Positions 1,255-35,606 of a stretch of 64,000 bases of DNA are shown here, in pieces. The DNA comes from a virus. The notes under the pieces are model-generated. The model ran no database searches. It worked only from the letters and a program-made list of their open reading frames with translations, and had not been told where the DNA came from. Each line of letters opens with the position of its first letter. Within the stretch, counting starts at the first letter, position 1. The stretch is taken from the IMG/VR virus record IMGVR_UViG_3300022745_000021, positions 32,001 to 96,000 of that record. One strand, 5' to 3'. Made by a program: the position numbers and the translations under genes.

Positions 1255-1359
1255 TCAGGCGGACGTGATCGCGGTGTCAGCCCGGCCGCCGCCGAAAACC
1301 TCCCCCGCGCGCTGCGTACTTGTGTTGGCGCTGGGGGCGTGAACGGTATTTGGTGCCAT
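1255..1359 (-). CDS. Putative 34-aa peptide
   Basis: GGAGG RBS before the ATG at 1359; promoter TTGACG-17-TAGACA at about 1446-1474. Confidence 0.35.
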   Translation of the reverse strand: MAPNTVHAPSANTSTQRAGEVFGGGRADTAITSA

Positions 1360-1776
1360 ATCCAAGGTCCTCCCCCCAGTATGTCGGTTGATGTTGCGCC
1401 CATCGCGGGCATGGCAAGGGGGCATTCCCCCCGTTCCTGATATGTGTCTACGTCCAACTTTGACGCGCGTCAACCTATCAAATCACCATAGGTTCCAAAT
1501 AAATTTCTTGAAATGTTGGATAACGTGAGTTTTTTGCGGTGTACCGGGCACATAGCAAAGGTCCGGGCGTAAAAATACCGTAAAAATGCATCAAACCGCT
1601 ATTCCGCGCCAAGTCAACCTGAACCGTTGTTCACTCTAGCTATGCAAATGATTGCGTTGCACGTCGCCCGGTGACTTGGCGGCCCTCCCCGTAACCGCAA
1701 ACGATGCTTCAAGCAACAAACGTACGTCGCACCGTCCGGCATGGCTTCCGGGGGCGTTGCCCGTGCCTCGCCCACG

Positions 1777-1814
1777 AAAAAGGCCCGGAAAGTGGTTTCC
1801 CACCTCCGGGCCTT
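1777..1814 (-). terminator. Rho-independent terminator
   Basis: AAGGCCCGGAGGTGG-GAAA-CCACTTTCCGGGCC hairpin followed by TTTTT on the minus strand. Confidence 0.85.
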
Positions 1815-1900
1815 GACGCTGCTGACACCACCAATTGGCAGCGGTGATGCCGGCGACCGGCAGGGGGAGGAGACCCACCCGTTACGGCCTTGCGCTTATC
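1777..1900 (-). ncRNA. Putative trans-acting sRNA (~125 nt) with anti-Shine-Dalgarno seed GGGUCUCCUCCCCCUGCCGG
   Basis: Own promoter (1906-1934) and own terminator, no ORF with an RBS between them, several hairpins. Confidence 0.65.
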
Positions 1901-1905
1901 GCTGG

Positions 1906-1934
1906 AAACTATGTCTGATGGCGCTGATTGTCAA
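1906..1934 (-). promoter_or_regulatory. Sigma70 promoter of the sRNA, embedded in the 3' end of the upstream CDS
   Basis: TTGACA-ATCAGCGCCATCAGACA (17 bp)-TAGTTT. Confidence 0.75.
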
Positions 1935-2523
1935 GGTCGAACAGCCGCTTCATTTCGTCTGGATCAAGCACTTGGCGCCCGTGCAGCCACATTTCGAGCA
2001 CCTGCCAGTCCTGCTCCGGGTTGCGCAGCACGATCGTTTGCGGGCCGGTCTGCGTCACCGCGTAGCCCGCGCAGCTGCCAAGGACGAACACCGCCGGCCG
2101 GTCGTCGGCCACCATCGGGTGCCCGGCGATCACCATGTCCGCATCGAGCGCGCCGGGGGTCAGCGTCTTGTCGTCGATCCGCTTGGCGTAGCGCGGCGCG
2201 GCAAGGTACGGGCACACCTGCACCGCGTAGCGCGCGCAGTCCTCGTGCATCGCGGGGTCGAGGAAGGCTCCCTGCGGGTGGGTGAAGCAGATCGGGCCGC
2301 CGATGAACCAAGCCCCCTTCCCTTCGTCCTTGAGCTTGTCGCCGCACAGCCCGCACAGGCCCTTGGTGGCGACTTCGAGCACGCGCATCTGGTCGCTGAT
2401 CGTGAAGTGCGCGCGCTTGCCCTTGTCCACCAGCGCCACGTAGGGGATCGGGTAGCCTCGGGGGTCCTTGGGCCGCTTGCGCAGGCGCTTGGGGACTTCG
2501 ATCGCGGTCTGGGTCGGCATCAT
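1909..2523 (-). CDS. Cys/His-rich phage hypothetical protein
   Basis: GYPIPY...LCGLCG...PAMHEDCARYAVQVCPYL; ATGA overlap with the upstream gene. Confidence 0.75.
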   Translation of the reverse strand: MMPTQTAIEVPKRLRKRPKDPRGYPIPYVALVDKGKRAHFTISDQMRVLEVATKGLCGLCGDKLKDEGKGAWFIGGPICFTHPQGAFLDPAMHEDCARYAVQVCPYLAAPRYAKRIDDKTLTPGALDADMVIAGHPMVADDRPAVFVLGSCAGYAVTQTGPQTIVLRNPEQDWQVLEMWLHGRQVLDPDEMKRLFDLDNQRHQT

Positions 2524-3074
2524 GCGGCAATCCTCGCGCGGCTGCGCCCCAAGGGCAAGGGATAGCGTTTCGTCGCCGGCACGCCGAGCGCCCAGTTGAT
2601 CTTGGCGCGGCTCACCGGGTGCCACTGGGTCTGATCGACGCACACCGAGACGTAGCGCTCGCTGGGGATCACGCGCGAGTGGAGGTGGCCGTGGACATTC
2701 GCCACCCACTGCCCGACTTGGCACGGGTGCACCGGGATGTGGGTCAGCACCAGCCCCTTGAGGTACTTGCAGCCGTGGACCTCCTCGAACATGTCGAAGC
2801 GCCCTTCCCGCATGTTGCCGTCCCAGTTGCCGCCGACCAGTCGCAGGCGGCCGGGCAGGTCGCGGAACACTTCGATGTCCTTGCCGGTGTCGCCGATCAT
2901 CCACACCACGTCCTCGGGCTGCACCAGCGTGCGCCAGTTGGCGATGATCGTGTCGGCCATCGCGGTCAGGCTCGGGAACGGGCGCGGGTTCTTGCCCGGG
3001 GTCAGCACCGACTTGTCGCCGAAATGCGTGTCGGCGATGAACCATTCGTTGGGTAGGGAAGCGGTAACGGTAAT
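2520..3074 (-). CDS. Calcineurin-like metallophosphoesterase (probable ATT start)
   Basis: Motifs ADTHF, IGD, GGNWD, LTHIP and NVHGHLH; the DxH motif lies upstream of the GTG start called in the track. Confidence 0.85.
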   Translation of the reverse strand: MTVTASLPNEWFIADTHFGDKSVLTPGKNPRPFPSLTAMADTIIANWRTLVQPEDVVWMIGDTGKDIEVFRDLPGRLRLVGGNWDGNMREGRFDMFEEVHGCKYLKGLVLTHIPVHPCQVGQWVANVHGHLHSRVIPSERYVSVCVDQTQWHPVSRAKINWALGVPATKRYPLPLGRSRARIAA

Positions 3075-3164
3075 GGGTAGTCTCCTCGGGTATGACGGGG
3101 CGCTGCCTTGCCCCCGGTTTGCTCTCTGCTCATACCGGTTTAGGGGTACGGCGTCAAGCGCTGT

Positions 3165-3749
3165 CTACAAATCGGTCTCGTCCTCGTCGGTCATGTAGCG
3201 GACAAACTCGTCGGGGTCGCGCGGCTGGAACGCGCCGGTGCGCACCATGCGGTCCCGTACCGCCAGCCCGCTCTCGTTGTCACCCCGGCAGGGGGCGAGG
3301 CGCGGATCGTCCGGGTCCACCCCGTTGGCAATCGCCATGTCGCGGTAGCTCGCGTAAAGCGCGACGCCGTCGGGGTTGCCGACGCGGTCCACATCGAGCC
3401 TGCCGTCCATCTGCGCGAAGCGGACGCCCATGTTGTTCGCCGCGTTGACCAGCAGGAAGCCCGCGCACGTCGCCGGGTTTTCCTTGCCGCTGTCGTGGCA
3501 GGCGAACGTGCTCATCGAGCCGTCATAGGCGGTGTTGGCGCTCACCCGGTACGCTTCGGCGGGGAAGAAGCCGATCGCGGCGTCCTTGCGCCACGGGCAG
3601 GTCGCGCACGGCTTGAGGCGGGCTACCGCCTTGGCTCCGTTGCTCTTGGTTTCGAGCCGGACGACCCCCCAGTCGGCGCCGTCACCGCCCTCCCCCACCG
3701 GCCGGACGCGGGTGGCCTCGGTCTGTCTGCGCTTGGACGTGGGCGTCAT
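3165..3749 (-). CDS. DUF6283-like Cys-rich protein
   Basis: PCATCPWRKD...FACH...CAGFL pattern; GAGGAGACC RBS. Confidence 0.7.
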   Translation of the reverse strand: MTPTSKRRQTEATRVRPVGEGGDGADWGVVRLETKSNGAKAVARLKPCATCPWRKDAAIGFFPAEAYRVSANTAYDGSMSTFACHDSGKENPATCAGFLLVNAANNMGVRFAQMDGRLDVDRVGNPDGVALYASYRDMAIANGVDPDDPRLAPCRGDNESGLAVRDRMVRTGAFQPRDPDEFVRYMTDEDETDL

Positions 3750-3894
3750 GGCGGTACGGTCTCCTCGGGTGGTTGCTGCCTGCCCCCTCGTACCATATGC
3801 CCGGTATATGGTCAAGAAATAGGGGTTGCAACCGCGTTGCAACCCCCTCCCCCCTCCGGGTTAATTTTCCGCGCCCGAGCGCGGGCAGACAGGA

Positions 3895-4350
3895 TCAGAC
3901 CAGCGCGTCGGTGATCGTGATCGTGTACTGCTTGTTCGCGTTGCTGTCCACGAGCGTGCCCGAGGCGACGATCGAGGCGGCGTTCTGCGAGCCGGTGATG
4001 TGGACCACCGAGGCGTTGGTGTAGACCGCGTCGAGCAGCGCAGCGTCGGCCGAGCCGGCAACCACCTTGAGGGTGATCGTGCGGGTCAGGACGGCGATGC
4101 CCTTGGTCTGCGAGCCGGTGTACGAGCCGTTCTTGCGGAACGAGCCATCGACGTTGGCGCGGATGAACGCGTCGAACGCAAGGTGGCGGTCGCGCACGGC
4201 GGCGACGTTGGTGAGGTTGGTCTTGTCGATGGCGAGACGGGTCACTTCCGCCTTGACACCGGCCCAGAACGAATAGGTGTCCTTGCCCTGAATGGCGCCA
4301 GCGAGGCTTTCCCAACCGCGCGGAACCTTGCGTGCATTCGAGTATTCCAT
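3895..4350 (-). CDS. Hypothetical protein, possibly a virion accessory protein
   Basis: AGGAGG RBS; Thr/Ala/Ser-rich, beta-like C-terminus; CTTCCTATATG promoter element upstream. Confidence 0.6.
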   Translation of the reverse strand: MEYSNARKVPRGWESLAGAIQGKDTYSFWAGVKAEVTRLAIDKTNLTNVAAVRDRHLAFDAFIRANVDGSFRKNGSYTGSQTKGIAVLTRTITLKVVAGSADAALLDAVYTNASVVHITGSQNAASIVASGTLVDSNANKQYTITITDALV

Positions 4351-4442
4351 GGAAGCCTCCTGTATGTGTAGGCAGCAACTAGCACTAGTGCCCCGCTCAT
4401 ATAGGAAGCGTCGTGGCGGGTGCAATACCGCCCGTGCGGGGG

Positions 4443-4787
4443 TTAATCCAACCCGCCCGCTGCAACGTGTTGCACCAGATCGTGGTAGCCGCCGACGTAC
4501 GCGCCCTTGACGAATATCTGCGGCACGGTGCGCGCGCTGCCCTCCAGTTCGAGGCCGTCGTAGAGCCGATCGCGCTCGGCTTGGGTTTCGAGCTTGAGCG
4601 TGATGTGCTCGGCCCCGAGCCGTTCCAGCAGCGCGTCCGTCCGGCGGCAGAACGGGCAGCCATCCTTGGAAAACACGACGATGCCCTCCTCCAGCGCGTC
4701 CCCGACCATGTCCCACGCGGCGGCGAGCGCGGCGTCGATGTCGTTGTCGGCGATGGCGGGCGGAATGATAGCGGCAGGAGCGTTCAT
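4443..4787 (-). CDS. Glutaredoxin
   Basis: CPFC active site, TVPQIF and GG motifs. Confidence 0.9.
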   Translation of the reverse strand: MNAPAAIIPPAIADNDIDAALAAAWDMVGDALEEGIVVFSKDGCPFCRRTDALLERLGAEHITLKLETQAERDRLYDGLELEGSARTVPQIFVKGAYVGGYHDLVQHVAAGGLD

Positions 4788-5362
4788 GGCGTATTCCTCT
4801 GGGTTGATGCGGCGTCTACATGTGTTGCTTGGGCGGGCCGAAAACAAGGCGCGGCCACTCCATACGGCGGCTTTCCGGGCGGACGATGATGGCGCGGGTC
4901 ACGCTTGGCGCGCTCGGCGCGCAGGAAATAGCGGGCAACCCGGTCGCAGTAGCCGTTGACCTTGCTGCGCGGATCACCGCCGCCGCTGTGCCCCTTCACG
5001 TGTCGCCATTCGAGCGTCAGGTTGTGCCGGGCAAGGAACTCCTGCGCGACCCGCGCGGTCTCGACACGGTCGGGCTGCTTGTGCCCGCCCTTCTTGGTCT
5101 TGGCCCCGGCAATCGCCACGCCGACGGCGTCGTTGTCGGTCTGCGCGACGATGGTATCGCCCGGCTGGATCACACCAGCCTTGAGGCCCATGTGGATGGT
5201 GTTGAGCAGCGCCCGGCTCTCGGCAACGGTCGTGCTGAACATCGCGTCCTTGAGCACCCCGCCGCCGCGCGCGGTGCCGCGTACGGACTTGACCCAGCCG
5301 CCCCACGTCCCGAGGCGCATGTGCGGGCACAGGCCCGCGTCGGAAAACACTGTCACCAACAC
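4784..5362 (-). CDS. rnhA: Ribonuclease HI-like protein
   Basis: FSDAG, AE, TDND, WRHVKGH and N.YCD.VA catalytic pattern. Confidence 0.85.
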   Translation of the reverse strand: MLVTVFSDAGLCPHMRLGTWGGWVKSVRGTARGGGVLKDAMFSTTVAESRALLNTIHMGLKAGVIQPGDTIVAQTDNDAVGVAIAGAKTKKGGHKQPDRVETARVAQEFLARHNLTLEWRHVKGHSGGGDPRSKVNGYCDRVARYFLRAERAKRDPRHHRPPGKPPYGVAAPCFRPAQATHVDAASTQRNTP

Positions 5363-30447: not shown

Positions 30448-30819
30448 TCAGTGCACGTCCTGACACATGATTGTCCGGGCACGGTGTCGCACATTGCTGA
30501 ACGCATCGTCTAGTTGTTCGCGGGTCAGCCCCGACGACGACACGAAAACAACCGGGCGGGGCGGCGGGGTGATCCGCTTCTCGCATACCCATGCCAGCGC
30601 CAGCAGGGCGACGGCGACCGGCAGCAGCAGCGCGGCGAGCAGCCAGTCGTGATGCCCGAAGGCAAAGCCGGCGACGGCGCCGGTGACGAGCGTCAGCCCG
30701 CAAGCGACGCTGGTCAGTGCGGCGTAGCCCCGGTGGTAGTACTCGCCGGTGTGCTTGTCCTGCGCGTAGCCATTGACATAGGCGCGGGCTATAGGGATCA
30801 GGTAGTGTAGCGGCAACAT
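30448..30819 (-). CDS. Membrane protein
   Basis: Two TM segments; GAGGAGAC RBS; motif-B promoter. Confidence 0.65.
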   Translation of the reverse strand: MLPLHYLIPIARAYVNGYAQDKHTGEYYHRGYAALTSVACGLTLVTGAVAGFAFGHHDWLLAALLLPVAVALLALAWVCEKRITPPPRPVVFVSSSGLTREQLDDAFSNVRHRARTIMCQDVH

Positions 30820-30944
30820 GTGGGTGTCTCCTCGTCTCTGCCAAGAACACATGTAGCCTACACATTAGCGGGCGTCAAGCGGCTTGGTTCCAGCCCGTGC
30901 TACGATTTTCCCGGCTCGCGCTTTACCGTTGCAACTGGTTGCAC

Positions 30945-31208
30945 CTATTCCGGCCTCGGCCCGGGGTCGCGGCGCTCCCCGCCCTGCCGGATCGTCTGTC
31001 CCGCCTCGGTCTGCGTGATGTGCGCCGCCCGGACGATGCGCGACTGGCGGATTGCGAAGATCGTGCCGCACACCGCGTCGGCGACGTCCTTCGAGTTGTG
31101 GACGAACACGCCTGCGGCCAGCGCGAAGTTTTCAGTCCCCGGCACCGTCAGGTCGAACACCGGAACGGGCTGCGAGGTAGTTATCCGCGTCACGCGAGTG
31201 CATTTCAT
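30945..31208 (-). CDS. terL: Split intein C-fragment (38 aa) plus terminase large subunit C-extein (49 aa)
   Basis: PVFDLTV...NFALAAGVFVHN|S intein blocks F/G, followed by SKDVADAV, which completes the TerL nuclease motif; own RBS. Confidence 0.92.
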   Translation of the reverse strand: MKCTRVTRITTSQPVPVFDLTVPGTENFALAAGVFVHNSKDVADAVCGTIFAIRQSRIVRAAHITQTEAGQTIRQGGERRDPGPRPE

Positions 31209-32014
31209 GGTAGGTCTCCCCCCTTGGCAGGAGCGTGTTTGCGTCGGCCGGGGTACGGAACAGCCGCCTCCTCCCATACCCGTCGTGCGTGCTCGGCGGC
31301 TTCGGCCTCGTCATCGAAGTACCCCTTCGTCACCTTGCGGAAGATCACGCGCCATCGCCCTTGCGGCGCGAACCACGACACGCCGGTCCACTCGGACGAC
31401 TTGACCGCTCGCCTCGTACACGTGTTGAAGTTGGGGATGACGAAGTCTTCGGGCAAGGGGTCGTCGGGGAAGTTAAGCTCCCGGCCCTGACCCGGGTAAC
31501 GCGCCCGCGCCACGCGGTCGTAGACCTTGGCCGCGATGGTGATGTCTCGGTATTGCCCGTAGTGGACCGTGCCCACTGTCACGCGCCAGAACCCGGCTTC
31601 CTTGGCGGGCTTTACCCCGCGATAGCCGTGCGGCGGCGCGTCTCCCATGTAGCCACGGATTGCCACGCGTGTCCTCCCGCAGTTGACGGCGTCCGGCAGG
31701 TGGCGAAGGTTTCGCCGCCGGCAGTCAAGTCGGTCGTGGTTTTCATGGTCAATATGCATACCCGGCGGTGCCCTGCCCGCGATCAGGCTGTGCAGCGATC
31801 GGTTTTCCGTGCGCTTGCAGCTGACCCGGCTGTGCCCCTGTCGGTGCCGGATGCTGTACGCGTAGCCGTTGTTCAGGTGTAGCGCCAGCCCGTCCACCAA
31901 GGGCACGTCGGCATAGTCGATCTTGGCCCACACCCACGTGCCCTTGGGTCCGCGCACCGGAACCTCGACGTAGTCGGGCAAAAACCGAAAGGGCGGCCAG
32001 TCGATGTAGGTCAC
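31205..32014 (-). mobile_element. Free-standing HNH-AP2 homing endonuclease between the terL halves
   Basis: LHSLI...IDHENHDRLDCRRRNLR (HNH) plus two AP2-like domains (YRGV...AAKVYD...LNFP; WTGVSW...GYFDDE.EAA); own TTGACT/TATAGT promoter. Confidence 0.9.
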
Positions 32015-32055
32015 GGGTTGTTCTCCTCACCGACTATATCGTACCACCCCCCTAG

Positions 32056-34197
32056 TTAGTCAAGCCCTTGAATATCATCCGTTTCGCCCAAATGCTGCGC
32101 TTCCTTGTACGTGCCGTCCGTCAGCAGGAAGCGGTGGTCAGGCGTGCAACGGATTACCGCGCCGTTTTCCAGTTCGACCTCGACCAGATCGCAGGTGCGC
32201 ATGGTCTCGCGCGGCTTGCAGCCGGTTGCAATCCGGGCCTCACCGTCAAACGTCACGATCTCCACGTCGGCGCCGGTCGCTGCCAGTTCGTCGAACCGCA
32301 CGTCCCTGCCATCAGCGAGGCGAACTAGCGTATCGCCCGTGAAGCAGCCGTTCGGCGGGTGATCGACCTTCTGTTTCTCGGTGTTCAGTTCCAGCTGGGT
32401 CAGTTCGACCTTGAGTTGTTCGCTGTCGAGCAGCGCCAGCCGGTCCTCGTACATCGACCGGCGAAATTCCTCGTACGGCTCGGTGGTGCGGTCCATGGAC
32501 AGCGCCCACGACTTGATCCCGGTCTTGTTGATCGCCTGCCTGCTTTCCGCGCTCTGGAAGCCGTCGTAGGTGATCGCGTACAGGTTGAAGCCATAGTAGG
32601 TGGACAGCAGCATGACCCACCGGCGGACCTCGGCGATGTCCAGTTCGCGCTGCGGACTTGGCTTGATCGCGCAGGCCATGACGTTGGTGATGACCGGCGC
32701 GCGCTCGATCACCCCGTCGCGCAGCACGTTCTGCAAACCCTCCAGACGCGACACGGCGACGCCGCAACAGTCGCCGGTGAGCGACAAGTCGATATGCGCG
32801 AAGTGGGGGCGCTGCTTGATGCTGGCGGGCAGGCTCTCCAGATATTGCCCCTGCCACTGCGGCATCCCCCGCGTCGCCAGTTCGGCGTAAGTGTCGGTGC
32901 AGTAGGGCCGCGTCTTGCGCTCGGTGCGGCGCTGGATCGCCTCGATGATCTTGTGGCGCTGGCCGATGAACGGGCTGATCGCGTCGGTGGCGACGCCGAC
33001 GATGTCGCGCAGCGCGCCCTCGGGATCGACGATGAAGCGTTCGCGGTACTCGATCGGCAGCGTCTCGATCTTGGCGCGCTCGGGGTAGTCGATCCCCGGC
33101 ATCATGCCATTCTCGATCACCTTGGTCCGGTACTCGTCCGTGCCCACGACGATCTGGAACTTCTCGCCCGAGAAGCGGTCCTGCGGCACCACCTCGTACT
33201 GTTTGCGGCGCAGGCACAGGATGCCTTGCAGGTTGTGCTTCTTGACCTCGTCCATGCGCTGGTCGAGGAAGTCGGACTTGTAGCGGGTGGACGACAGGAT
33301 GCACAGCACCCCCAAGGTGTAGCCCCGCGTCGTGAACGAACGGCCCTGACGACGGGCGATGTTGTCGTAGACCTCGCGGGCCTGATCGAACTTGCCCCCG
33401 CCGCCGCGCGAACCCACGGCCTGCTTGGAGTTTTCGATGATCCGCATGAAGTTGACTTCGTCGAGCATCGACCCGGCGATGGCCTGACCAAGGATCGCCT
33501 CGATGTTGGCGAGCGCGGGCACGATGGTGACGCCCGAGTTGAAGATCAGTTCGGTCTCGCGCTGCTTGTCCCACGTCAGCCACCGCTGCACGAACGGCAT
33601 CGACGTGAACATTTGCCGGAACGGGCGGTAGATGACGCGCCGGGTGATCGCCTGACTGACGCTCTGGAACATGAACACGATCGGCGTGATCGCGGCGAGG
33701 TTGTACATCAGCTGCGGGGTGTTGAAGCACTCGAACAGGTAGGCTTGGTGCGCGATGGTGACGTAGCTCAAGGTCGTCTTGCCGGTGCCGGTCGCGCCGC
33801 CGAGCAACGCCTGCCGGACCGGTGCGGCGCCGGTGAAGACGTCGGGGTTCATCATGCGGATGTCACGGCGCAGCGCGGGCCAGATTTCCTGAATGTTGCC
33901 AAGGAACTCGGGGCTTTCGCAGAACTCGTCGATGGTGACGGGCACGCGTTTCATGAAGGCGAGGTGGCGCAGCTTGTGCAGGTTGTCGCGTTCGCTGGCT
34001 TCCTCCAGCGCGTGGGCGTAGATTTTCGCCATGCGGCTGTGCGGACCGTGCAGGCCCTCGGCCTCGGACTGCAACCGCTCGGCCTCGTTGAGCAGGACAT
34101 GGCGGACGCGTTCCCGGCGCTCGTTGCGCACGTCCTCGATCCGCGAGCGCAGGCGCGGGGCGACTTGGCTGTCGGGGTAGCGGGCAGCGTCGGTCAT
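32056..34197 (-). CDS. terL: Terminase large subunit N-extein (617 aa) fused to split intein N-fragment (96 aa, 32059-32346)
   Basis: Walker A GGATGTGKT, Walker B MLDE, HIDLS nuclease motif, DHPPNG|CFTGDT intein block A, CTPDHRF block B, then stop. Confidence 0.92.
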   Translation of the reverse strand: MTDAARYPDSQVAPRLRSRIEDVRNERRERVRHVLLNEAERLQSEAEGLHGPHSRMAKIYAHALEEASERDNLHKLRHLAFMKRVPVTIDEFCESPEFLGNIQEIWPALRRDIRMMNPDVFTGAAPVRQALLGGATGTGKTTLSYVTIAHQAYLFECFNTPQLMYNLAAITPIVFMFQSVSQAITRRVIYRPFRQMFTSMPFVQRWLTWDKQRETELIFNSGVTIVPALANIEAILGQAIAGSMLDEVNFMRIIENSKQAVGSRGGGGKFDQAREVYDNIARRQGRSFTTRGYTLGVLCILSSTRYKSDFLDQRMDEVKKHNLQGILCLRRKQYEVVPQDRFSGEKFQIVVGTDEYRTKVIENGMMPGIDYPERAKIETLPIEYRERFIVDPEGALRDIVGVATDAISPFIGQRHKIIEAIQRRTERKTRPYCTDTYAELATRGMPQWQGQYLESLPASIKQRPHFAHIDLSLTGDCCGVAVSRLEGLQNVLRDGVIERAPVITNVMACAIKPSPQRELDIAEVRRWVMLLSTYYGFNLYAITYDGFQSAESRQAINKTGIKSWALSMDRTTEPYEEFRRSMYEDRLALLDSEQLKVELTQLELNTEKQKVDHPPNGCFTGDTLVRLADGRDVRFDELAATGADVEIVTFDGEARIATGCKPRETMRTCDLVEVELENGAVIRCTPDHRFLLTDGTYKEAQHLGETDDIQGLD

Positions 34198-35102
34198 GCG
34201 CGCGTCCTCACCCGTGCCGGCGGCAAGCCGGGGCCATCGTCGATCCGGGTATCCCAGCCGCCCGCGCTGTCCTCGGTGTCCGCGAAATCGTCGCCGTCGG
34301 GGTCAAGCGTGTCACCCGGCTCCGGTTCGGCCGGGATGCCGCCGGTGTCGCCCAGCGACCGTGCCGCCGGGTCCTGCCAGCCGCCCCCTGCCCCGTCACC
34401 GCCCGGGCCGCCGCCGGGATCGCCGGGGATGTCGATGGCGTCCTCGTCGCCGATGTCGTCGATCGGGCCGTGCGCGGCGTCCACCAGCGCGTCGATGACG
34501 CCGTTGATCGCCCCGGACAGCGCGCGGACGGCGGTCACGCTCTCGTCCTCGTTGCTGGCTTGCAGCGACACGCCCCGGAAGCCGCCGACCTTCTCGATGA
34601 ACTCGAACTCGTTGCGCATGACGGTCATAAGGCTGTCGCGGGCGCGGTGCTTGTCCACCTCGGACGAGCCGCCGCGCTGGAGCGCGAAGAACGCGCTTTC
34701 GCGGAGCGAGCGGAACATTTGCACGTGCTCGGCGATGACCCCCATCCCGTCGAAGCGGGTGACGGCGGCCTCGCGCATTTCCTTGCGCGCCTCGGTCAGC
34801 AGGGCGCGGGTCCACGTCAGGCCGAACTGGAAGGTCTTGGCGATGTCCTCGTCGCGCACCCCGGCCATCGCCATGCGCAGCATTTGCTGTTTGGCGTAGA
34901 CGCGTGCGGACGAACCACCCTCGACCGCCTTGATCTGGCGGTAGCGCACGGCGGGTTCGGCCGAGAGGCTATCGCCGTAGATGAACGTCCCCTCGGCGGT
35001 GGGTGCCGGTTCAGGCTGCGCGGCAGCGACGTTGTCGTCCACGGCGATCACCCGCCGGGTGCGGGGCCGGGCCGGCGGGAGGGGTCGAGGTGCCTGCGCC
35101 AT
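34194..35102 (-). CDS. Putative terminase small subunit
   Basis: Directly upstream of terL with ATGA overlap; HTH-like GVRDEDIAKTFQF; acidic disordered tail. Confidence 0.6.
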   Translation of the reverse strand: MAQAPRPLPPARPRTRRVIAVDDNVAAAQPEPAPTAEGTFIYGDSLSAEPAVRYRQIKAVEGGSSARVYAKQQMLRMAMAGVRDEDIAKTFQFGLTWTRALLTEARKEMREAAVTRFDGMGVIAEHVQMFRSLRESAFFALQRGGSSEVDKHRARDSLMTVMRNEFEFIEKVGGFRGVSLQASNEDESVTAVRALSGAINGVIDALVDAAHGPIDDIGDEDAIDIPGDPGGGPGGDGAGGGWQDPAARSLGDTGGIPAEPEPGDTLDPDGDDFADTEDSAGGWDTRIDDGPGLPPARVRTRA

Positions 35103-35264
35103 GGGTCAATCCCATGCGAACGGGGGAAGATAGATCACGGGCGCGCTCCCTCATACCCCTTGACGGGGATTGGCTGGACCCTACACATGTAGGGAGGCCG
35201 TTAGGGAAGTGCAACGCCGTAACTCGCTGCAACCAGTTGCAACCGGCGGGAACGCGCCGGAAAA

Positions 35265-35606
35265 TCAGGCGAGGATTTTGCCCGGCGCGGTCTGGCCCGA
35301 CGTGCGCACGGTCGTGCCCCGGGCGCGCAGTTCGTCGGCGACGCGCTGGATCGTGGAGATACCCACGCCGTACTTGTCGCGCAGCTTGGCGTACGACAGC
35401 CCGCCCTTGGTCAGGTCAGCGGCGATGGCCGCGCGGGTGTCGTCGGGGACGGTCGGCTGGCCGTACTTGGCCGCGCGTTCCTTCCAGAAGGCATCGGCGA
35501 TCTGCGAGGCGAGGGCATGGGCGTCTTCGGGCGAGTGCACGCCGAGCAGGCCGTTATAGACCGCGTCCCATACTTCCTGTCGGATGATCGTCTGCTTTGC
35601 CACCAT
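35265..35606 (-). CDS. HTH transcription regulator, Mor/C-like
   Basis: N-terminal helices plus GLSYAKLRDKYGVGISTIQRV HTH; tandem motif-C sites in its promoter. Confidence 0.7.
   Translation of the reverse strand: MVAKQTIIRQEVWDAVYNGLLGVHSPEDAHALASQIADAFWKERAAKYGQPTVPDDTRAAIAADLTKGGLSYAKLRDKYGVGISTIQRVADELRARGTTVRTSGQTAPGKILA

Follow-up and report, generated by a model that had tools for sequence, protein, structure and literature searches.

A probable fractured gene in a viral large terminase: a canonically split intein with a putative HNH-AP2 homing endonuclease in its break

Organization of the terL Locus

The window analyzed here is a stretch of 64,000 nucleotides (bases 32001-96000) of a 104,959-bp virus record in IMG/VR (IMGVR_UViG_3300022745_000021), with an estimated completeness of 96%, and it contains a gene for a large terminase subunit (terL) that is interrupted inside a conserved motif of its nuclease domain. 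According to the list of open reading frames (ORFs) and the sequence, the element is composed of three minus-strand ORFs, each in a different frame: one coding for most of TerL fused to the N-terminal half of an intein (TerL-N::IntN), an HNH endonuclease gene, and one coding for the C-terminal half of the intein fused to the end of TerL (IntC::TerL-C). We consider it very probable that this arrangement is a working “fractured gene”, in which a canonically split class-1 intein occupies the nuclease motif DHPPxG/SKDxxDA (the slash marks the break) of the only terL, with an HNH-AP2 gene in the break. The parts of the element are the following:

34197..32056, minus strand: TerL-N::IntN, 713 aa (617 + 96), reading ...KVDHPPNG/CFTGDT...CTPDHRF...ETDDIQGLD, stop TAA
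32347..34197, minus strand: TerL N-extein, 617 aa, with Walker A (GGATGTGKT), the ATPase domain and most of the RNase-H-like nuclease domain; C-end ...VDHPPNG
32056..32346, minus strand: IntN, 96 aa plus TAA, with Cys1 (CFTGDT) and block B (TPDH)
32015..32055, minus strand: spacer between IntN and the HNH gene, 41 nt, with a GAGGAG Shine-Dalgarno (SD) sequence at 32028-32023, 8 nt before the HNH GTG
31205..32014, minus strand: free-standing HNH endonuclease gene, 269 aa, GTG start, stop TGA
Same gene, protein domains: I-HmuI-like HNH core (D89 H90...N102...N111), then AP2-like domains at residues ~130-185 and ~207-250
31208..30945, minus strand: IntC::TerL-C, 87 aa (38 + 49), reading MKCTRV...VFDLTV...GVFVHN/SKDVADAV
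31095..31208, minus strand: IntC, 38 aa, with its own GGAG SD sequence at 31219-31216, 7 nt upstream of the ATG
30945..31094, minus strand: TerL C-extein, 49 aa plus stop, with Ser+1 (SKDVADAV...) and the conserved KDxxDA acidic nuclease motif

The TGA stop codon of the HNH gene and the ATG of IntC overlap as ATGA, and the joined exteins give a TerL of 666 aa. A first-pass annotation, made from the sequence alone, had given the three ORFs, the lengths of their parts and the size of this product, and all of them agree with the ORF list and the sequence.

Intein Identity and Insertion Site

IntN matches the NCBIfam model TIGR01445 (intein_Nterm) with 35.8 bits (cut-off 24.5) over residues 618-691, and the IntC of the small ORF matches TIGR01443 (intein_Cterm) with 30.3 bits (cut-off 15.6) over residues 16-39. 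IntN also matches structures of the Ssp DnaE intein (E 1e-5), and the two halves jointly span positions 9-92 and 120-155 of the 155-position Pfam model Intein_splicing (PF14890). They are the only intein matches in the whole 105-kb genome, and the occurrence of two halves that match these profiles can be taken as beyond chance. The splicing residues are all present: Cys1 (CFTGDT), TPDH, the block-F Asp (VFDLTV), VHN and Ser+1. The net charge of IntN is -11, its tail (ETDDIQGLD) being acidic, and the nine N-terminal residues of IntC sum to +3, a local charge pairing of the kind expected of canonical split inteins.

The insertion is exact, since intein-free TerL proteins (those of Rhizobium phage L338C, Aeromonas phage HJ05 and the homologs P0002-P0008) read DHPPxGSKDxADA ungapped at the insertion site of the window. 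Alignment with intein-free terL alleles had been proposed in the first-pass annotation as a check, and at the protein level VDHPPxG-SKDxADAV is indeed continuous across the junction. One-piece relatives carry an HNH domain precisely at the break of the window. Judging from the sequence, the element is a class-1 intein, canonically split between block B/N4 and block F. The earlier proposal that terL is fractured by a split intein with an HNH-AP2 gene in the break is thus borne out by the profiles, the exact insertion, the contiguous inteins at the same site and the recurrence of the break described below.

The Host Gene Is a Large Terminase

The TerL of the window shares 44% identity with the TerL annotated in Rhizobium phages RHph_I4 and L338C and 36% with the PaMx31/SM1 group, and it matches PHROG 9 (E 2e-5); its N-extein is 76% identical to P0002, an intein-free TerL of 662 aa. 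The AlphaFold2 (AF2) model of the N-extein (predicted local distance difference test, pLDDT, 86) retrieves in Foldseek the large terminases of HK97, D6E, Sf6 and T4 (E 3e-14 to 7e-12). TerL-N was not assigned to any terminase family in a local Pfam search, and searching the PDB by sequence with the window TerL retrieved no terminase, only P-loop noise, so the identity of TerL rests on its homologs, PHROG 9 and the fold. By these the host gene is recognized as a large terminase, with a predicted N-terminal ASCE ATPase and a predicted C-terminal RNase-H-like nuclease.

No second terL was found when the whole genome was searched with the intein-free P0002; only the two pieces in the window match, and the C-extein aligns with residues 613-661 of P0002 and with the C-termini of intein-free TerL. 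Because terL is single in a genome estimated to be 96% complete, packaging must depend on the two pieces. In an alignment of 87 TerL sequences, H613 of the DHPP motif is invariant, and D612 and both Asp residues of SKDxxDA are at least 90% conserved, so the break parts conserved nuclease residues. The last Asp of the SKDxxDA motif is catalytic in TerL nucleases.

The Endonuclease in the Break

The HNH protein scores 29.8 bits against Pfam HNH_3 (cut-off 24.8) and matches PHROG 99 (E 3e-20). Two alignments, of 8 and of 59 homologs, show no variation at D89, H90, N102 and N111, whose spacing we take to match the I-HmuI triad. Pfam AP2 is matched by 38 of the 59 full-length homologs (best E 3e-20), and the AF2 model of the window protein (pLDDT 88.6) retrieves in Foldseek WRINKLED1, which has two AP2 domains, I-HmuI (match probability 0.99), TEM1 AP2 and AtERF1 (template modelling score 0.70; root mean square deviation 1.8 Å). 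From the homologs and the model, it is likely that the window protein contains two AP2 DNA-binding domains. The HNH-AP2 family is large, with 5037 cluster representatives at E <= 1e-3, mostly stand-alone proteins of 220-260 aa, and the protein in the break is a putative homing endonuclease that would cleave a specific site and so mediate homing.

The Split Recurs in Independent Loci

A scan of IMG/VR with the IntC alignment gave 155 relatives, and the 80 loci that were kept were classed by ORF structure. At least 11 of them are split like the window (L006-L010, L014, L016, L022, L027, L035 and L068), 15 carry mini-inteins of 136-144 aa at the same site, and about 45 carry large one-piece inteins of 194-455 aa, also at this site. 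Two further TerL-N::IntN proteins, P0009 of 691 aa and P0010 of 726 aa, stop where the window protein stops, and 14 further proteins of 68-132 aa are IntC::TerL-C, with the same start position in nearly all of them. Scans of IMG/VR with whole proteins (the window TerL, P0009 and P0010) gave no matches, and neither did a megablast search of the region against isolated phages.

The break point and the catalytic residues are conserved across these diverged terminases. Cys1 and the T..H of block B are invariant in 14 aligned IntN, whose tails end within a few residues of ...AQYLTxxDDLQD. The IntC alignment contains 23 sequences, the window and 22 others (including 11 from the loci and 10 of the 14 small IntC::TerL-C ORFs); in it the block-F Asp, the His-Asn pair and Ser+1 are invariant, nearly all sequences are 38 residues long, and the N-end reads M-[KR]-[IV]. 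An HNH homolog lies in the break of seven split loci (L006, L007, L009, L010, L014, L016 and L035, E 1e-41 to 3e-9). The copy of L014 is cut to 160 aa and ends before the IntC start; in all six full-length copies the HNH stop and the IntC start overlap, as ATGA in some and by 8-25 nt in others, and the overlap is, therefore, a conserved trait. The possibility, raised in the first-pass annotation, that the split is an assembly artefact is not borne out, the same break being shared by 11 or more loci and another 16 proteins that come from unrelated samples.

The split is also present in an isolated phage. In Streptococcus phage vB_SagM-GXN1 (L098, PQ819873.1), terL is split at DHPPNS/C...HN/SKD, the same site, in a stretch that is unannotated in GenBank. 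Among species-representative genomes only 10 loci were found, all from metagenome-assembled genomes and every one with a one-piece intein.

Some of these loci have further peculiarities. In vB_SagM-GXN1, terL is broken at least twice within 1348-4309: the N-end of an 868-aa ORF is the IntC of another split intein, beside the DEIEFM Walker B region, and at its C-end IntN is fused in frame to an extension of ~330 aa; a 124-aa IntC::TerL-C ORF comes next, overlapping the 868-aa ORF by 20 nt. The TerL-N::IntN ORFs of L016 (741-4253) and L007 (1152-4286) are 1171 and 1045 aa long, versus ~700 aa elsewhere, and L016 has a second intein-like start (GG/CFPAG) ~240 residues into the ORF; both genes probably contain extra one-piece inteins upstream. 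In three near-identical loci (L079-L081, ~3530-5321), a 252-aa ORF that contains IntN and additional sequence is separated by a 651-nt gap from an ORF with IntC; because these loci group with the large one-piece inteins of L061 and L071, this seems to be a large intein that has been broken independently and recently, or frameshifted.

Evolution and Mobility

The seven closest TerL (P0002-P0008, 55-76% identical) are continuous chains that lack any intein or insert at the site, and the split relatives are 26-48% identical to the window in their exteins versus 43-66% in IntN, which together is the pattern expected of a mobile element. In a tree of splicing domains the window falls with other split inteins, beside a set of mini-inteins (Shimodaira-Hasegawa-like approximate likelihood ratio test, SH-aLRT, 95). 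Ten large one-piece inteins were sampled, of which six carry an in-frame HNH_3 domain and none carries AP2; the one-piece HNH is only 26% identical to that of the window in its core (E 0.001). That the free-standing HNH gene arose from a one-piece HNH shifted out of frame was set aside as the simplest reading, as the window protein has AP2 and N-terminal domains that are lacking there; the grouping of the split clade with mini-inteins also disfavors this origin.

The content of the break varies among the split loci. The gap of L022 (4863-5001) holds a remnant of the HNH-AP2 protein (N-terminal ~35 aa, E 4e-9) and that of L027 (4770-5001) holds pieces of its AP2 domains (E 2e-10), indicating that both loci have undergone deletion of the endonuclease gene and retained the split of the intein. 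In L008, where IntN stops at 2426 and IntC starts at 2905, a 161-aa HNH protein of PHROG 3377 (E 3e-52) is encoded between them, at 2475-2960 on the plus strand; it is not homologous to HNH-AP2 and its gene overlaps the IntC start by 56 nt, indicating that the endonuclease has been swapped within the fractured gene. These remnants and this replacement, together with the mini- and one-piece inteins, match stages of a model in which a free-standing endonuclease gene invades a mini-intein and the endonuclease is later lost (Dassa et al., 2009; PMC2677866).

Expression and Proposed Mechanism

Upstream of terL lies a candidate for the first gene of its operon:

34194..35102, minus strand: small-terminase candidate gene, 302 aa, stop overlapping the terL ATG (ATGA)

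This gene probably opens the same operon as terL, because of that stop/start overlap. Its product shows weak similarity to that of gene 001, the syntenic gene in Rhizobium phage L338C (E 5e-4), lacks a PHROG match, and has a C-terminal tail that is acidic and rich in Gly and Asp.

A search of 30700-35300 gave no sigma-70-like site. A phage dyad, RTACC-N8-GGTAY, occurs at 23 sites (with at most one mismatch) versus 2.2 expected, and has no copy inside the terL element; the nearest copy, at 35153-35170, lies a short way upstream of the small-terminase-like gene, where it possibly marks the packaging-operon promoter. The HNH gene had been described in the first-pass annotation as separately promoted, which these searches do not support, and, as no internal promoter was found, one operon is the simpler reading. 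A hairpin is predicted over the SD sequence and start codon of the HNH gene, but it is no better than those of shuffled sequences (z = -1.0), and the start region of IntC has no hairpin (z = -0.1).

In the mechanism that we propose, a single late transcript, starting upstream of the small-terminase-like gene, would carry all three genes and yield three products: the 713-aa TerL-N::IntN, the HNH protein (from its GTG, with its own SD sequence) and the 87-aa IntC::TerL-C (from the overlapping ATG, also with its own SD sequence). The acidic IntN and the basic N-end of IntC would dock and form a single HINT fold, in which Cys1, the His of TxxH, the block-F Asp, the terminal His-Asn and Ser+1 would perform trans-splicing, releasing the 666-aa TerL with the last acidic nuclease helix joined to the rest. 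The HNH-AP2 enzyme would cut the intein-free terL of co-infecting relatives, and repair would then copy the whole IntN-HNH-IntC cassette into the cut alleles.

Translational coupling of IntC to the endonuclease, which was said to lock the element in place, stands only in part: the stop/start overlap is conserved in the full-length copies, but relatives delete or replace the HNH gene and yet keep IntC, which has its own SD sequence, so that the lock does not hold. A bolder proposal, which we regard as rather unlikely, is that the split TerL inteins form a single clade, old and mobile, where stop/start overlap ties translation of the essential IntC::TerL-C to whichever endonuclease sits in the break, the element being an addiction and timing device; the words “whichever endonuclease” are used because two unrelated HNH genes (of the HNH-AP2 and PHROG 3377 types) both overlap the IntC start. 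If this were true, translation of the selfish nuclease would alone determine when the terminase nuclease obtains its last catalytic helix, and in what amount, and the clade would be a natural library of Cys1/Ser+1 split inteins, possibly mutually orthogonal.

Alternative Explanations

Several observations weigh against the interpretation of the locus as a working fractured gene with an HNH-AP2 endonuclease. Each half alone scores ~25 bits against PF14890, under the 35.8-bit cut-off, and the whole IntC has a charge of only +1, so charge complementarity between the halves is local, not global. The window's own HNH protein has no match to Pfam AP2 even at E 10, and the E-values of its Foldseek matches are weak (8e-3 to 0.7), though with probabilities of 0.96-0.99. 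In the best tree with all 13 split rows, these fall on one side of a branch with modest support (ultrafast bootstrap 49, SH-aLRT 95.5). Finally, the source record is a metagenome assembly.

This last point would be in favor of an artefact, that is, a one-piece HNH intein seemingly broken by two false frameshifts, and one-piece inteins that carry HNH_3 in frame do exist at the same site (P0011, P0042, P0060, L011 and others). However, the three frames, the real TAA stop, the 41-nt spacer with its SD sequence and the ATGA overlap speak against it, the same architecture is found with diverged sequence in independent assemblies, and the free-standing HNH protein has N-terminal and AP2 domains that are absent from the in-frame versions, besides its distant core, so we give this explanation practically no weight. 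It is also very improbable that terL is dead, with the intein in decay and the phage defective or the contig degraded. The homing cycle does predict decay of intein endonucleases to split or mini forms (10.1101/2025.01.02.630785), and L079-L081 resemble a broken large intein, but the independent split loci and proteins described above have kept the break point together with the stop of IntN and the start codon of IntC, the catalytic residues of the HNH protein are intact, an SD sequence precedes each ORF, the nearly complete genome has no other terL, and an isolated phage is split at the same site.

The pieces of TerL could also work without covalent joining, the intein halves merely holding them together. 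The pieces of the Aeh1 NrdA, whose gene is split by an HNH gene, assemble non-covalently without an intein (cited in PMC2677866), and the 49-aa C-extein is small enough to dock as a helix. Mere docking, however, needs no conservation of the splicing residues, and every one of them is invariant in the 14 IntN and 23 IntC in spite of the low identity of the exteins; we therefore see little chance for this explanation and infer that the pieces are joined by trans-splicing. As to the endonuclease, HK97 gp74 is an HNH protein that helps the terminase in packaging, and the protein in the break could be a helper of this kind instead of a homing endonuclease, as HNH genes commonly adjoin terminase genes in cos phages and translation of the HNH gene is tied to that of TerL-C. 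This, too, seems highly improbable: HNH_3 plus two likely AP2 domains in 269 aa is the architecture of a free-standing homing endonuclease, with I-HmuI among the best fold matches, and the gene lies precisely in the endonuclease slot of the intein. Moreover, L022 and L027 have deleted the HNH gene and L008 has swapped it for an unrelated one while keeping the split terL, and the nearest TerL (P0002-P0008) are single chains with no insert at the site. A working fractured gene with a putative homing endonuclease in its break is the explanation that we prefer.

Comparison with Known Systems

Fractured genes were defined in 2009 by Dassa, London, Stoddard, Schueler-Furman and Pietrokovski in loci with GIY-YIG or Vsr-like endonucleases, HNH genes being only predicted to be able to fracture genes, and those loci are the sources of the split inteins gp41-1, NrdJ-1 and IMPDH-1 (PMC2677866). 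The window resembles them in having host-N::IntN, a free-standing endonuclease gene and IntC::host-C on one strand, in its phage or metagenome origin, and in the position of the break at the endonuclease slot, with halves that are within their range of 88-105 and 33-54 aa. In contrast, the host site is here the TerL nuclease motif of a terminase like those of the siphoviruses L338C and PaMx31, and the endonuclease combines HNH with two likely AP2 domains; the only terminase locus in the 2009 set is atypically broken and belongs to a myovirus terminase like T4 gp17. The intein of the window is also distant from theirs (NrdJ-1 at E 0.1, gp41-1 not found). The gp41-1, NrdJ-1 and IMPDH-1 inteins are likewise Cys1/Ser+1 and of similar size, and the window pair, called compact and a candidate new orthogonal ligation tool in the first-pass annotation, is neither unusually compact nor chemically new.

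Natural split inteins of metagenomic origin are already known in phage large terminases, namely AceL-TerL, GOS-TerL and Cat-TerL (PMC11766414), although their split is atypical (25-37 aa for IntN and 104-122 aa for IntC) and they use Cys+1, whereas that of the window is canonical (96 + 38 aa) with Ser+1. The one-piece inteins at the same site share with the window the junctions DHPPxG/C...HN/SKD, an IntN that is 44-48% identical, a nearly identical IntC and an endonuclease of the HNH_3 superfamily, but they are single ORFs without AP2, and in the intein tree their branches are not those of the split clade. One case is known of an essential phage gene with a split intein and a free-standing HNH gene between the halves, although it involves another host protein and another intein, in a single genome and with no family-level evidence. 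The halves of the cyanobacterial DnaE inteins are encoded far apart, have no endonuclease gene between them, use Cys at +1 and reside in a cellular polymerase. Those of Ssp and Npu (PDB 1zd7, 1zde and 4kl5) are the closest solved structures by sequence and have, like the window, the canonical break, an acidic IntN and a basic N-end of IntC. Actinophage inteins are the subject of a preprint of 2025 (10.1101/2025.01.02.630785), which reports HNH in frame and endonucleases out of frame but does not describe the layout of the window. A literature search found no paper on the canonical TerL split clade. The element of the window belongs to the known fractured-gene class of selfish elements and is part of a sizeable clade that had not been described.

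Significance

When phage genomes are annotated, the label of pseudogene should be avoided for a “truncated” terL that has an HNH gene and a small ORF after it. For protein engineering, the clade is a source of at least two dozen diverged pairs of natural Cys1/Ser+1 halves, with an IntN of ~94-109 aa and an IntC of 38 aa. A single insertion site displays nearly every stage of the 2009 model (mini-inteins, one-piece inteins with HNH, split inteins with HNH-AP2, split inteins with remnants and a split intein with a swapped endonuclease), and an essential phage enzyme that would be completed only by trans-splicing makes this terL a clean natural example of a fractured gene.

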